From Candidatus Woesearchaeota archaeon (lineage in GTDB: Archaea; Nanobdellota; Nanobdellia; SCGC-AAA011-G17; PNOQ01): a DNA stretch of 64,000 bases. The stretch is taken from assembly GCA_043812195.1 (NCBI GenBank), contig JBDRML010000001.1, positions 1-64,000 on the forward strand, read 5' to 3'. Each line of letters begins with the position of its first letter. Positions within the stretch are counted from its first letter, which is position 1. Below the pieces are notes generated by a model. That model did no database searches. It saw only the letters and a program-made list of their open reading frames with translations, and was not told the DNA's origin. Below, one piece after another: positions 34,247-51,787 of the stretch. The translations under genes were made by a program, and so were the position numbers.

Positions 34247-37200
34247 ATGATGGACTGGAGTTTATTCAATAAAAAAGAGTATTTAGAACCTTTAGTATTT
34301 TCTAATGGAAAATCACAATTAGATGTTGTTAAAGAAGTAATACAAGCAATTAAAGAAGGACATAAGATAATTTTCATAAAAGGTATCTGTGGCACAGGTA
34401 AATGTCTAGAAAGAGATTCCAGCGTATTTTGTAAACCAAATAATGAAAATCATTTTAGTTATCATAAAATTTCGGAGTTAGTTGGGAAGGGAGGAGATAT
34501 TTTAGCTCTTGATAGAATGGGAAAAATCACAGAGTCTAAGTTTAAAAATGTGAGAAATACTGGTATTAAAAAATTATACAAGATAAAAACAAGAACTGGA
34601 AGAGAAATAGTTGCTTCAGCAAATCATCCATTACTTACTATAACAAAAGAAGGGATAGAATGGCTGCCCTTAGAAAAACTAAATAATTATTCCTATATTT
34701 GTCTTCCAAATAAAATTTCTTTTGGAAGAGAATTAGATTATGATAATGATAAGATTAAAATTCTTGCCCATTTAATTGCAGAAGGTAAATTAGGGGACAA
34801 GGCTGGGTCTCCAATTTATTTTCAAAGTCCAAGTAAAAACCCAGAAATAAGAAAAGATTATATCTCTTCATTAAGAAGAGCATTCCCAGATGGAGAAATA
34901 AAAAGCTATTGTGAAAAAGATGTTGCTATTGTTTTTAGAAATATGAACACAACTAAAGGAGCCACAAACAAACTAAGACTTTTCATTAGGGAGCATGGGT
35001 TGGATAAAAAAAAGTCCAGCCAAAAATTTATACCCAAAATAATATTTAATTTAAAAAAAGAAAAAATTTCTTTATTTTTAAGTAGATTGTTTTCTTGTGA
35101 TGGAAGTATCTATCAAAAAAAGAAGGATGGCCAAATAACTATTGAATATTCTTCTATCTCAAAAAGATTAATTCAAGACGTTTCTCTTTTACTTCAAAGA
35201 TTTGGGATCCAACATACAATTACTTCGAAAAAATTTAAAGAAAATAAAGAATATGCTTGGATAATTTGTATTTCAAATCACAACTCTCTTAGAAAATACA
35301 TAGATGAAATTGGCTTTGTTGGTAGAAAACAAAGATTAGCTTTGAAATTATACAACAAACTAAAAATACATAAATTTACCAATATTGATAAAGTTCCAAG
35401 AGTCATACGTGAATATTTAAAAAAGAAGGGATATAACTATACTGAACTCGATAGATTTTTAAATTACGAAAAAATTGAAGAATCTAGAAAGAAAAAAAGT
35501 TTTAAACAGATAAGAAAAGATAAATCAATAGAAACTCCTTTTGTATTTAATCAACAAAAAATTGATTTTTTAAGAAGCCATATTAAAAAAATAAATAATT
35601 ATATCAAAGATGACACTCTTTCTTTTATTTGCAATGAAGATATCTTTTGGGATAAAGTAAAATCAATTGAATATATAAAAAAAGATGAAACTTATGATTT
35701 AGAAGTTCCAAAAAATCACAATTTTATTGCGAATGGAATCATTGTTCATAATTCTGCCATTGCATTAAATATAGCTAAAGAAATCGGTAAAACATCTATT
35801 GTAGTCCCAGTTAAACCATTGCAAAAACAATACGAAGAAGATTACACAGATAAAATGTATGTTCTAAAAAAAGATGGTAAAAAATTAAAAATAGCCATTA
35901 TTGATGGAAGAAACAACCATAGATGTATCTTTAAATCAAATTGCATGGCAGATGACAGATATATTCCATGTACTATTGAAATAAAAGAAGATAACCTTAA
36001 CTTACTAAAAGAATACCTACACCAAAATAAATTTGTAAACACCAAAGGCTTCAAAAAATTAAAAGACATCAGAAGAAAATCCATAGCACCTGCATGCCCT
36101 TATTGGTCTCCAATTTTACACAAAGATATGTTTGAACAAGATTATAGCATAGAAGACGCAGAAGAAATAAATTATCAAGGTCTTCAAAACAAAACATTCA
36201 CTTATTTCCAAAGAGAAAAAGGCTGCAAGTATTACAACCAATTCTTAAATTACCTTAATTCAGATGTTATTGTATTTAATAGTAAGAAATACGAACTTGA
36301 AAATTTAATGGATAGAAAACCAGCAACAGAAATAGAAATAATAGATGAATGTGATGAATTTTTAGATAATCTTGCAAATGAAAAAAAAATAAACCTAGAT
36401 AGACTATCACTGGTGCTTTCAAATGTAAAAACTAAAGATTTCGATTTAAAAGAAATAACAATAGAAATTAACGATTTAGTTCTTGAATTATTAAATGATA
36501 AAAAAATCTCTGAAAAAGAAATATTTCCAATCAAAAAAACTAAAATCTATCCATTATTAAAACATTTCACATCAAATGCAGGATTAATCGATTTAGAAGA
36601 AGAAGAAACAGATTATTTATACAATGTATATCAAACAGGAAAATCTTTTGAAGATTACTTTGATGAAACCTATGTAACATTTTATAGAAATGATAGAAAT
36701 GAATTATTAGTTAATATAATTACAGTAGATCTTGAAAAAAAATTAAAAGAGTTCTTAGATAAAAATAAGGCTTTTGTAATGATGAGCGGAACTATCCATT
36801 CTGAAATGATATTAAAAGAAGTTTTCGGAATTAAAGATTTTAAGATAATAGAAGCAGAAGTAAATCCAATTGGCAAAATCAAAAAAATAAGAACAAAATT
36901 AGAAAAATGTTTTGATTATCAAACTTTAAAACAAAATGGAGCTAGAGAAGCATACTTAGATGCTCTTTCTAGAGCTGTAGAAGTAGCTGAAAAACCGGTT
37001 TTGGTTCATGTGAATGCATTTAAGGATTTGCCATCTAAGGAAGAGTGTTTACGGTTTAATATTTCAAATTTGAAAACCAAAGAAGAGCTTATGATCGAAC
37101 AAAATGAATATAGGCGTGGTGAATTAGTCAAAAAATTTAAAGATAAGGAAATTGAAGTTCTTTTTTCAACTAAATGTAATAGGGGCGTAGATTTTCCAGG

Positions 37201-37432
37201 TGAAATTTGTAATAGTATTATATTCACAAAATATCCATATCCTAATGTAAGTTCTTTATTTTGGCAAATATTAAAGAAAAGTAAGCCTGAATATTATAGT
37301 ATGTTCTATAAAGATAAAGCTGAAAGAGAATTCTTGCAGAGAGTTTACAGGGGTCTTAGGTCAGAAAAAGATCATATAAACATTTTAAGCCCGGATATTA
37401 GGATTTTGAATTCCATTGGGTTGGTTAAGTGA
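34247..37432 (+). CDS. XPD/Rad3/DinG-like SF2 helicase containing an intein
   Basis: GICGTGK|S Walker A split by intein, Cys cluster (HRC..C...PC...ACPY), IIDECD, MMSGT, RGVDFPG, QRVYRGLRS. Confidence 0.88.
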   Translation: MMDWSLFNKKEYLEPLVFSNGKSQLDVVKEVIQAIKEGHKIIFIKGICGTGKCLERDSSVFCKPNNENHFSYHKISELVGKGGDILALDRMGKITESKFKNVRNTGIKKLYKIKTRTGREIVASANHPLLTITKEGIEWLPLEKLNNYSYICLPNKISFGRELDYDNDKIKILAHLIAEGKLGDKAGSPIYFQSPSKNPEIRKDYISSLRRAFPDGEIKSYCEKDVAIVFRNMNTTKGATNKLRLFIREHGLDKKKSSQKFIPKIIFNLKKEKISLFLSRLFSCDGSIYQKKKDGQITIEYSSISKRLIQDVSLLLQRFGIQHTITSKKFKENKEYAWIICISNHNSLRKYIDEIGFVGRKQRLALKLYNKLKIHKFTNIDKVPRVIREYLKKKGYNYTELDRFLNYEKIEESRKKKSFKQIRKDKSIETPFVFNQQKIDFLRSHIKKINNYIKDDTLSFICNEDIFWDKVKSIEYIKKDETYDLEVPKNHNFIANGIIVHNSAIALNIAKEIGKTSIVVPVKPLQKQYEEDYTDKMYVLKKDGKKLKIAIIDGRNNHRCIFKSNCMADDRYIPCTIEIKEDNLNLLKEYLHQNKFVNTKGFKKLKDIRRKSIAPACPYWSPILHKDMFEQDYSIEDAEEINYQGLQNKTFTYFQREKGCKYYNQFLNYLNSDVIVFNSKKYELENLMDRKPATEIEIIDECDEFLDNLANEKKINLDRLSLVLSNVKTKDFDLKEITIEINDLVLELLNDKKISEKEIFPIKKTKIYPLLKHFTSNAGLIDLEEEETDYLYNVYQTGKSFEDYFDETYVTFYRNDRNELLVNIITVDLEKKLKEFLDKNKAFVMMSGTIHSEMILKEVFGIKDFKIIEAEVNPIGKIKKIRTKLEKCFDYQTLKQNGAREAYLDALSRAVEVAEKPVLVHVNAFKDLPSKEECLRFNISNLKTKEELMIEQNEYRRGELVKKFKDKEIEVLFSTKCNRGVDFPGEICNSIIFTKYPYPNVSSLFWQILKKSKPEYYSMFYKDKAEREFLQRVYRGLRSEKDHINILSPDIRILNSIGLVK
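34403..35752 (+). mobile_element. 450-aa intein with LAGLIDADG endonuclease
   Basis: N-terminal C(LERDS), ASANHPLL block B, LAHLIAEG and LFSCDGS, TYDLEV.KNHNFIANGIIVHN followed by S. Confidence 0.95.
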
Positions 37433-37440
37433 TTTATTTT

Positions 37441-37463
37441 AGCGAGAGGTGTCTCGCGCTCTC
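37441..37463 (+). repeat. Hairpin element copy 6 (directly after helicase)
   Basis: agcgagaggtgtctcgcgctctc then ttttagata. Confidence 0.95.
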
Positions 37464-37512
37464 TTTTAGATAAGTTTTTATATGTTTGGATACTATGCTA
37501 TGATATATTAAA

Positions 37513-50799: not shown

Positions 50800-50822
50800 A
50801 GCGAGAAGTGTCTCGCGCTCTC
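50800..50822 (+). repeat. Hairpin element copy 16
   Basis: agcgagaagtgtctcgcgctctc. Confidence 0.95.
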
Positions 50823-50864
50823 TTTAAGAAAGTATATAAATCAATTAAATAACATAATCCTAAC

Positions 50865-51734
50865 ATGTTAGGAAGAAATCATGTTTCAATTTCATTAGCT
50901 ACAATTATGCCTTTCTTAATACCTCTTATCTTTTTAGAATCAAATAATTCAATAATATATGGTTTTGCTTTTTTAATATCTATTCTTGTTGGATCTCTGC
51001 TACCCGACGCAGACTGTGGAGGAAAATCAAAACTCTATTACGATTTTAACATATTCTACCAATTAATTATTCCAATTACCAAATTAACTGTTTGGACATT
51101 TAAACTTTCAAGTGTTAAAAAAAAGTTGTCTACAAAGTTTTCAGAATTACAAGATGTAAATCATGAACATAGAGGGATAATGCATTCACCCATAGGAACG
51201 ATAGTCAGTTCTTTTTTGTTAACTTTAATTATTCTTATCATAATGACACTTATTGCTAAAACTAATCTATTATTAGTTTTAATTATCTTTCTAGGATTAA
51301 TTATTGGACAAATTCTACATTTATTAGAAGATTCCTGCACTGTTACTGGGATAAATTGGATGTTTCCATTTGGAAAAAAAGAATTAAAAGGGCAAATATA
51401 CACATTTGAGTGGAAATATCAAAATAAAAAAGATATCCGGCCGATGATTTATGTTTATTCCCTGGTGGCTGTGTCCATTATATCCTTATTAGTAAACTCA
51501 TTTGGGGCTGTGAATAATCTTTTTTTATATTATTTAATAACAACAATCGCAGTTTTGATAATTTGGATAATAATTATCAAGATATCTCAAAGTCAGTCTA
51601 TTTTTTGGTATAGAGACGCCGAAAAAATAAAACAAATACAAAAAAAACAAAGAAAAGCTTTAAAAAAATTTACAGGAATAAAAAGAAAAAAACACAAAAA
51701 AAGATCATATAAACATTTTAAGTCCAGATATTAG
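50865..51734 (+). CDS. YdjM-like membrane metal-dependent hydrolase
   Basis: GSLLPDAD, HRGIMHS, HLLEDSCT..GI.W.FPF; last codons read out of frame into the helicase-tail copy. Confidence 0.85.
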   Translation: MLGRNHVSISLATIMPFLIPLIFLESNNSIIYGFAFLISILVGSLLPDADCGGKSKLYYDFNIFYQLIIPITKLTVWTFKLSSVKKKLSTKFSELQDVNHEHRGIMHSPIGTIVSSFLLTLIILIIMTLIAKTNLLLVLIIFLGLIIGQILHLLEDSCTVTGINWMFPFGKKELKGQIYTFEWKYQNKKDIRPMIYVYSLVAVSIISLLVNSFGAVNNLFLYYLITTIAVLIIWIIIIKISQSQSIFWYRDAEKIKQIQKKQRKALKKFTGIKRKKHKKRSYKHFKSRY

Positions 51735-51764
51735 GATTTTGAATTCTATTGGGGTAGTTAAGTA
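51698..51764 (+). repeat. Displaced copy of helicase 3' end (~67 bp)
   Basis: aaaaagatcatataaacattttaagtccagatattaggattttgaattctattggggtagttaagta. Confidence 0.9.
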
Positions 51765-51787
51765 AGCGAGAAGTGTCTCTCACTTTC
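51765..51787 (+). repeat. Hairpin element copy 17 (degenerate)
   Basis: agcgagaagtgtctctcactttc then ttttaga. Confidence 0.8.

Follow-up and report, generated by a model that had tools for sequence, protein, structure and literature searches.

The window analysed here is a stretch of 64,000 nt, namely the first 64 kb of a 70.7-kb contig (JBDRML010000001.1, hereafter C1) from the metagenome bin of a groundwater DPANN archaeon with a genome of less than 1 Mb (0.94 Mb in 45 contigs, approximately 29% G+C). As shown in Table 1, it was found that the 3′ end of an XPD/DinG-like helicase gene recurs four times downstream of the intact gene. Each copy, 59-324 nt in length and called a tail below, is followed by a hairpin repeat. 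The first-pass annotation had noticed this recurrence, and repeat finding together with a self-BLAST of the contig bore it out with E-values from 2.7e-09 to 1e-153. The tails are non-functional scars. I see an even chance that homology guided the insertion of foreign blocks at the end of the helicase gene, with duplication of a long stretch of the target, and that the blocks were then shuffled at the hairpins. Read in this way, the tails record within the sequence itself how genes were gained, at least four accessory blocks having arrived at the end of one gene with DNA from several related lineages.

Stranded helicase ends and the hairpin-repeat array

The homology of the long third copy starts at 45518 and not at 45529 as had been given. 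This copy aligns with the native gene or a sister copy over 357 nt with 93.6% identity including gaps (96% ungapped over 300 nt; E-value of 1e-153) and encodes an open reading frame (ORF) of 106 residues with 98% amino acid identity to the helicase. Its join corresponds to positions 37109-37112 of the gene. The second tail matches the native gene with an E-value of 2.7e-09 and the copy at 45774 with an E-value of 2e-17. The three short tails start at the native equivalents of 37365, 37373, and 37362-37365, in agreement with the first-pass annotation. A fifth copy, starting at the equivalent of 37364-37365, was found on a metagenome contig (L011). The DNA upstream of the tail junctions is unrelated between the copies. 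In every stranded copy, AAGTAA lies directly on the hairpin without a spacer. The intact helicase, which had also been described as immediately followed by the hairpin, differs from the copies in this respect; it ends with AAGTGA and a 9-nt spacer, and the same TGA+9 junction is present in a second allele on another metagenome contig (L020).

The intact helicase gene carries an intein with a LAGLIDADG domain at residues 73-502 (nt 34463-35752). Its C-terminal extein matches the PADLOC model typeIV_DinG over nearly the full length (6.5e-30).

Table 1. Features of the helicase locus in the window.
Feature	Position	Strand	Remarks
Array repeats upstream of the helicase	26412, 27967, 32296, 32611, 33258 (span 26412..33279)	+	No helicase tail at any of them
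Intact XPD/DinG-like helicase, 1061 aa	34247..37432	+	Pfam Helicase_C_2, Intein_splicing, LAGLIDADG_3
Native tail (37365-37432, stop TGA), 9-nt spacer, and repeat (37442-37463)	37365..37463	+	
Block 1	37464..38661	+	DUF4064-like and DUF4352-like small membrane or secreted proteins
Stranded tail 1, 68 nt (38662-38729), and decayed repeat (38730-38751, 3 mismatches)	38662..38751	+	E-value of 1.7e-24 to the native tail
Block 2	38752..43364	+	DUF6886-like, radical SAM/SPASM, three unknown ORFs, single-repeat TATA-binding protein (TBP)
Stranded tail 2, 59 nt (43365-43423), and decayed repeat (43424-43445)	43365..43445	+	Most decayed, with indels
Block 3	43446..45517	+	Schlafen AlbA_2/HATPase_c_4/winged helix-turn-helix (wHTH) protein and 190-aa ORF
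Long stranded helicase end (tail 3), 324 nt (45518-45841), and intact repeat (45842-45863)	45518..45863	+	
Block 4	45864..51697	+	Lipoprotein-like ORF (-), radical SAM/SPASM, MA-peptidase-like, NosD beta-helix, 337-aa ORF (-), YdjM-like ORF
Stranded tail 4, approximately 68 nt (51695/51698-51765), and decayed repeat (51766-51787)	51698..51787	+	E-value of 1.4e-25
Last plus-strand array repeat	52172..52193	+	

The hairpins belong to a gene-cassette array of 45 kb with 18 repeats on C1, some of which lie upstream of the helicase. A pattern scan allowing up to 4 mismatches placed 18 of the 19 hairpin copies of the genome on C1. The plus strand accounts for 15 of them, located from 26412 to 52193 with five upstream of the helicase, while three minus-strand copies at 66.9-69.8 kb of C1 form a second, inverted array. 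The 22-nt repeat is GCGAGARGTNTCTCGCGCTCTC, which has 12 matches in the window with up to 3 mismatches versus none in 100 shuffles. The conserved unit is approximately 35 nt in length and consists of TT[A/G]AGTAA as the left arm, a hairpin (6-bp stem, 4-nt loop), and a right arm GCTCTC followed by TTTTAG. The left arm is also present 5′ of hairpins that have no tail (39234, 41666, 32296, 32611, 33258, and 50801). Thus, the (G)TTAAGTAA preceding other hairpins, which had been taken for the last bases of helicase tails, is the left arm of the repeat. This arm supplies the stop codon to three unrelated ORFs (ending at 39233, 41665, and 45841), and the helicase ORF extends approximately 18 nt into it, past the end of its homologs. 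A TATA-like box lies 9-27 nt past the repeat at 14 of the 18 repeats, compared with 20% of random 40-mers. The cassettes therefore have their own promoters. Several of the array cassettes contain minus-strand genes.

The exact hairpin pattern was found in none of 60 relatives and in no stretch of the genome and viral contig collections. Eighteen metagenome contigs have the pattern; 12 low-GC relatives were kept, and six high-GC contigs (0.54-0.68) were dropped as chance matches. Rfam assigned no family at the repeats, the single match being a sub-threshold snoRNA. One repeat occurs with identical flanks and three different centres (GAAGTATCTTGC, GAAGTGTCTCGC, and GAGGTTTCTCGC) at C1:69730-69751, at L013 2453, and at L024 7343. 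These three centres suggest that exchange may take place inside the repeat.

The helicase gene is itself one cassette within the larger array, limited by the repeats at 33258 and 37442, and is thus no fixed anchor of the host. It behaves as a cassette because array repeats lie on both sides of it, here and in another genome (L051) whose helicase is 60% identical. In L051, the related repeat GAAGAGCGAGAGAAACTYGTGTCTCTCAA is located at 539 and 2839 on both sides of the ortholog (1037-2839), and the stop codon, in AAGTAG, abuts the repeat directly. Three copies of the same repeat lie upstream of the ortholog in L052 (L051 534-5932 and L052 7807-9816, both Woesearchaeota-type genomes; orthologs 59-60% identical). 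Judging from these sequences, either the link between helicase and array is older than the present lineage or the two travel together.

Allelic origin of the tails and recombination among strains

The tails encode a conserved helicase C-terminal motif (..LSPD.[RK][IV]L[NQ]..), which is common to homologs with approximately 50% identity that do not have the repeat. Thus, the tails were derived from the helicase gene, rather than the gene from the tails. A comparison was made of the native gene with the four copies in the window, the L020 allele, L011, and L019, the last being a sister of the long copy. Among the 17 variable site-changes, 15 are synonymous versus a random expectation of 18.8% (binomial P=1.2e-9), and the short-tail region alone gives 7 of 9 (P=2e-4). 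When the changes were sorted by hand, all the polymorphisms common to copies or to L020 were synonymous, while the private changes of the stranded copies in the window comprise one synonymous and two non-synonymous codons. All four combinations are present at sites 37379 and 37412 (a four-gamete pattern). Three synonymous states are common to the long copy and L019 and absent from the native gene and L020; the long copy therefore came from another allele lineage. On these patterns, the tails were once the ends of several different working alleles, and their decay set in only after they were stranded. Such tails fit repeated import or displacement and are not explained by duplication of the resident helicase in place.

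The helicase alleles of C1 and L020 are mosaic, with 0-12 differences per 100 nt, and thus homologous exchange does occur in the helicase gene. The intein, however, has only 2 differences between the two alleles in the 500 nt compared, against up to 12 per 100 nt in the exteins; this near-identity suggests that the intein may have spread recently across the helicase alleles. In L020, an insertion sequence (IS) of the other strain with a DDE_Tnp_1 transposase lies exactly after the repeat-ending TTTTAG behind the helicase (L020 1-49; C40:7966-8543). I had considered L020 as a cassette swap at the helicase hairpin, but rejected it; the foreign DNA is the IS end, with its DDE transposase on C40.

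The decay of the copies does not follow their order. By decay, the second tail would be the oldest, with indels and a hairpin that departs from the degenerate consensus at 3 positions; tails 1 and 4 are intermediate, and the long third copy is pristine. A check of whether divergence increases with distance from the gene had been proposed. The comparison of tail and hairpin decay across the four copies revealed no such age gradient along the array. By hand count, three of the four tail-linked hairpins have 3 or more mismatches versus one of the 15 others (Fisher P=0.016). The decayed hairpins after the short tails are consistent with scars rather than with sites kept in use.

A different history can be drawn from the position of the helicase between array repeats (33258 and 37442 here, and both sides in L051): whole extra helicase cassettes might have been imported via the hairpins and trimmed by deletions that left only the 3′ ends, without any hotspot at the helicase end. 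Tails derived from diverged functional alleles would suit such a history, as would the L011 tail, which is away from any known helicase. The junction of the long copy is also preceded by GGTTAAGT..GAGAG, which is faintly left-half-site-like, but this resemblance is not significant (p ~0.2). The genome contains no helicase 5′ fragments or other partial copies; its only two matches are the gene and the 45518 copy. Moreover, independent deletions would hardly end at the same base three or four times. I regard trimming as distinctly unlikely.

Metagenome contigs gave evidence for recombination in the population. In L019, the end of the 190-aa ORF, the long tail, and its hairpin are followed by the TBP cassette, a short tail, the hairpin 43424, and the start of the next gene. 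This order is the junction expected where a two-cassette unit of 2.84 kb has either formed a circle or been copied in tandem, and it suggests a hairpin-to-hairpin joint such as 45863 to 43021. The switch point lies between AAGTAA and the hairpin loop. L019 has 7 differences from the window copy in 503 bases and is therefore from another strain. The order of the window at the switch hairpin of L019 is supported by L025, whose record prefix is that of L019. A Logan contig with a joint from 51763 to 42997 (side 60) shows the same type of junction; 12 'skip' joints were listed, 11 with sides of 21-24 nt and one of 28 nt, and these were disregarded. In L026, unrelated DNA lies upstream of the hairpin 32296, with the switch at GAGTAA. 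In L011, different cassettes follow the hairpin 66918 of the inverted array, and one of them ends in a tail and an intact hairpin. The L019, L026, and L011 junctions thus show that hairpins recombine across the array and that tail-bearing cassettes move. With recombination at these other hairpins, insertion is not strictly polar, in contrast to the polar hotspot of the first-pass annotation.

Strain variation of this kind (L019, L020, and L026) in a metagenome bin of 45 contigs also raises the question of whether the assembly strung together alternative strain versions of the DNA downstream of the helicase via the common tail and hairpin. The Logan contigs (four runs) are short, and none of those listed spans a tail with both flanks. 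Yet each tail has its own pattern of single-nucleotide polymorphisms, and the longest exact shared stretch is 40 nt among the short copies and 80 nt between the long copy and the gene. Thus, the paths through the copies are unique at the usual final k-mer sizes. Each junction between a block end and a tail must physically exist, and the separate contig L019 confirms both the order of TBP, tail, hairpin 43424, and next block and that of the 190-aa ORF, long tail, and hairpin. Other stretches of the array are confirmed by L025, L018, L014, and L027 at 99.5-99.9% identity. An assembly artefact is highly improbable.

L027 bears on the left edge of the array as well. It does not contain 24533-25761 and has approximately 320 nt of other DNA instead, which is a presence/absence polymorphism of a homing-endonuclease-type insert. 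In this region (24533-26368), a 383-aa LAGLIDADG ORF (24543-25694, minus strand) adjoins a 199-aa Rad51/RadA-like gene (25769-26368, minus strand).

Orthologs of the helicase are patchily distributed. With the C-terminal extein as the query, a homolog (E-value of 1e-10 or lower) was found in 2 of 40 relatives and in none of 24 genomes of the same family. In a species-level genome collection, 332 relatives of the helicase were found, the best being 68% identical. The close ones are in records titled Woesearchaeota, Pacearchaeota, or Nanoarchaeia, except for one Dojkabacteria record (L112). None of 80 ortholog loci, 63 of which have at least 2 kb of downstream sequence, has stranded tails. Since these orthologs are too distant (68% identical at most), this is a weak test of the first-pass reading. 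Coding matches shared with the flanks of the window were found at none of 25 ortholog loci for the downstream side and at one of 20 for the upstream side.

Proposed serial insertion, candidate machinery, and cargo

How would homologous insertion at the helicase end have produced the locus? DNA from related strains, carrying a helicase 3′ end, the repeat, and foreign genes, would have entered several times. It would have recombined within the approximately 100 nt made up of the helicase end and the repeat, most likely by a single crossover with a circularised fragment or by a join anchored by homology on one side only. Each event would leave the helicase whole, with a second tail and repeat beyond the new block. 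Recombination between hairpin repeats could later move, excise, or duplicate the blocks; the present order is thus no age series. How the crossover took place, that the intermediate was circular, and which way the DNA was transferred are inferences. The topology of intact gene, block, tail, block, and tail would be expected of serial insertion at a gene end. The varying lengths of the tails and the join at 37109-37112 would likewise be expected of homology-based capture and not of one fixed attachment (att) site. The direct junction of stop codon and repeat in the stranded copies, as in L051, versus the derived junction of the working gene appears to fit the view that older ends lie downstream. 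Thus, the first-pass proposal of serial insertion at the helicase end survives in part: the tails are remnants of the gene and the topology fits, but the helicase is itself a cassette.

Several observations weigh against homologous insertion. First, three or four independent junctions (38662, 51695/8, L011, and perhaps 43365) start within approximately 3-8 nt of the same base despite unrelated upstream DNA. Random breakpoints would not give such a shared start. A run of five A residues at 37365, one of three runs of at least five A in the last 500 nt of the helicase, could favour microhomology joins; however, neither the long copy nor the copies on C16 (see below) are joined at A runs. Second, the direct AAGTAA junction is common to the stranded tails, in contrast to the TGA+9 of the two native alleles. 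Either the former residents had the ancestral junction, as in L051, or all crossovers took place in the hairpin with the tails as passengers. If the resident had TGA+9 throughout, every crossover would lie in the hairpin part, which would favour hairpin-specific recombination. Third, the L011 tail sits in the context of the second, inverted array, and the 8.1 kb that continue this array contain no helicase (L024; largest ORF of 338 aa). Fourth, no empty-site allele was found among the 12 related metagenome contigs; L020, the sole other allele with its downstream DNA, has the IS end directly behind the repeat. No listed Logan piece (contigs of approximately 150-1000 nt) bridges a tail with both flanks. 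Finally, 22 of the 58 differing codons in the 2.2-kb comparison of C1 and L020 are non-synonymous, and thus the constraint on the helicase is not uniformly strong.

The shared start of the short tails, despite their differing upstream DNA, may instead reflect site-specific integration. The approximately 100 bp of tail and hairpin would then be an att site at which a tyrosine recombinase acting in trans inserts non-autonomous elements at the helicase end, comparable to attI or to an att site of the tRNA type. Every integration would restore the helicase and displace its previous end downstream, as in the att alternative of the first-pass annotation. By hand reading, the repeat can be divided into two inverted arms and a 6-bp centre, with both polymorphic positions in the centre, and the centre of one repeat varies among strains between identical flanks (C1 69730, L013, and L024). 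Integrative mobile elements exploiting Xer (IMEX) and pdif modules use a 28-bp site with 11-bp inverted arms on which Xer acts; in the repeat here, 7 of the 11 arm positions match. An 11-6-11 layout of dif sites is given in a passage of PMC2958812. The genome has four tyrosine recombinase genes, including a XerA-like one at 9418-10044. However, no recombinase lies in or beside any block, and this nearest one, at a distance of 16 kb from the array, consists of a catalytic domain alone. In a test of the extent of the att site, three copies start at 37362-37365, one at 37373, and the 324-nt copy, which lacks the common boundary, at 37109. Neither a pseudo-site nor an inverted repeat was found at 37355-37375 above shuffles, and no relic of a site remains upstream of the tails. 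In addition, the tail-linked hairpins are the decayed ones, and the second tail locus on C16 has no such repeat. Site-specific integration of this kind is rather unlikely.

A related and quite unlikely scheme is that an archaeal cassette system not yet described, and other than an integron, uses the helicase end and hairpin as its primary site of capture, with each capture duplicating approximately 110 bp. A defined nick would be made near 37362-37365 and a second one just past the hairpin, the tails would record successive captures, and the machinery would be encoded elsewhere or be the recombination system of the host.

By Pfam, none of 20 block ORFs belongs to an integrase, transposase, or nuclease family, and six have no family at all. 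The same families were not found in subsets of the block ORFs by NCBIfam (8), PADLOC (8), or Atlas (2). Besides the four tyrosine recombinases, the genome encodes one Y1 transposase. The XerA-like protein is 208 aa in length, scores 87.5 bits against TIGR02249 (the integron integrase test; cut-off of 265), and has no N-terminal domain in any frame upstream. An HNH endonuclease gene follows it (9418-10463 for the pair). The other three tyrosine recombinases are on other contigs, including a XerA-type gene on C36. The only Y1_Tnp gene is on C23 versus 18 of 19 hairpins on C1, which speaks against an IS200/IS605 or REP/RAYT relationship.

Three structural candidates were rejected. No attC-like extended fold was found around the tails or hairpins (-85..+45 at 15 sites; z from -1.9 to +2.5 versus flank shuffles). 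A cryptic copy of the repeat inside the helicase as a secondary site reached 19-20/36 at best, within the shuffles (mean of 18.4, maximum of 22). A decayed hairpin directly upstream of the tails, which would make each tail a 'mini-cassette', gave local alignment p values of 0.2-1.0 at 5 of 5 junctions.

A second tail locus is present in the same genome on C16 at approximately 67.0-69.7 kb (L046 7004-9721). There, a 136-aa gene has its 3′ end repeated three times downstream (94, ~43, and ~43 nt), and these copies flank a gene for a Fic protein and one of 425 aa. The copies differ from the 136-aa gene mostly at synonymous sites, and no hairpin repeat is present at this tail locus. Together with the helicase locus, the C16 locus suggests that archaea with small genomes may commonly gain genes by homology-anchored capture with target duplication. 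It is also suggested that stranded gene ends are usable for finding such hotspots. C1 also has a full RadC-like gene and, inside the inverted array, two partial radC copies, one of which is cut at the hairpin 66918 (C1:63774-69156; L001). These paralog fragments were considered as a second tail series and rejected, being 5′ parts with 73-85% identity.

Among the cargo gained are radical SAM maturases, a Schlafen-type regulator, and proteins of the membrane and cell surface. Block 2 has array repeats inside it at 39234, 41666, and 42999, and block 4 has one at 50801; the YdjM-like ORF of block 4 runs 36 nt into the fourth tail. An Atlas look-up of two unnamed block ORFs gave only lipoprotein-like and DUF553/transglutaminase-like leads. 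Normal archaeal TBPs have two repeats. The TBP cassette (43068-43337) encodes a single-repeat domain of 89 aa, and its presence marks the organism as an archaeon. Radical SAM cassettes are found at three places in the array (26491-27957, 39379-40737, and 46619-47881); one has a B12-binding domain and two have SPASM. A small ORF (40734-40955) comes after the SPASM gene at 39379-40737. The two arrays are separated by a defence-type block (54146-63790 of the window) that encodes a CARF-like wHTH protein, a UvrD helicase fused to a PD-(D/E)XK nuclease, a 969-aa N6/N4 methylase, and a 1085-aa ResIII/SNF2 helicase.

Comparison with known systems

Nobusato et al. reportedly described insertion with long target duplication in 2000. 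Passages of Furuta, Abe and Kobayashi (2010, PMC2853133) describe such insertion for bacterial restriction-modification genes, with repeats that often span stop codons. In those passages, a block without a mobility gene lies between direct target copies of more than 30 bp; here, the copies comprise 59-324 nt and the 22-nt repeat. There, the repeat spans the stop codon and the target remains intact; here, the helicase is open over 1061 aa and the copies include the stop codon. The repeat-flanked units described in the same passages can amplify or pop out, likewise here. On the other hand, those cases concern restriction-modification genes in bacteria, no archaeal case having survived the screen according to the portion of the paper concerned, whereas the cargo here is of other kinds. 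The events described there are single ones, whereas here there are four in series, with repeats from different alleles. The duplicated target here also includes a dedicated repeat of a cassette array.

Integrative elements accrete in tandem at the 3′ ends of tRNA or protein genes and leave partial repeats as att sites. The series of an intact gene, an element, and a partial 3′ copy is shared with the helicase locus, as is the constant start of most copies. In contrast, no block here contains an integrase, one copy is five times longer than the others, and the blocks are built of smaller cassettes bounded by repeats. Integration at tRNA 3′ ends is mentioned in a part of PMC2853133.

In the displacement of rhs, contact-dependent inhibition (CDI), and type VI secretion system (T6SS) C-terminal ends, the incoming piece recombines in the conserved anchor part, and what had been the gene end stays behind downstream without function. 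Such dead copies stem from working alleles there as they do here. In those systems, however, the repeat precedes a variable toxic tip and an immunity gene, while here it is the extreme 3′ end, with 98% amino acid identity and thus an unchanged protein; the cargo here consists of unrelated genes without toxin-immunity pairs.

Integron cassette arrays and clusters of attC sites lacking integron-integrases (CALINs) include archaeal ones, as stated in a portion of Ghaly et al. (2022, PMC9668308). The present array is like them, as far as they are described there, in its co-oriented cassettes, its structured repeat overlapping stop codons, its strain-variable content, and its circle-type junction. 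Delta-attI-type cassettes that carry part of attI are described in PMC12901181, and likewise some cassettes here include part of the site that adjoins the first gene. The differences are several. The attC sites are described as imperfect inverted repeats of 55-141 nt (R''-L''...L'-R') with a single-stranded fold, whereas the repeat here has a 6-bp stem and a 4-nt loop. No IntI gene is next to the array. Integron cassettes are mostly promoterless and co-oriented, while TATA-like boxes (14 of 18 repeats) and minus-strand genes are found here. Integron recombination also proceeds without duplication of the upstream coding sequence. If homologous insertion is the right reading, the locus shows homology-anchored capture interacting with a hairpin-repeat cassette array distinct from integrons. 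Although scars of this type are known, a series of four, derived from several alleles and set within a hairpin-repeat array that does not pass as an integron, is new.

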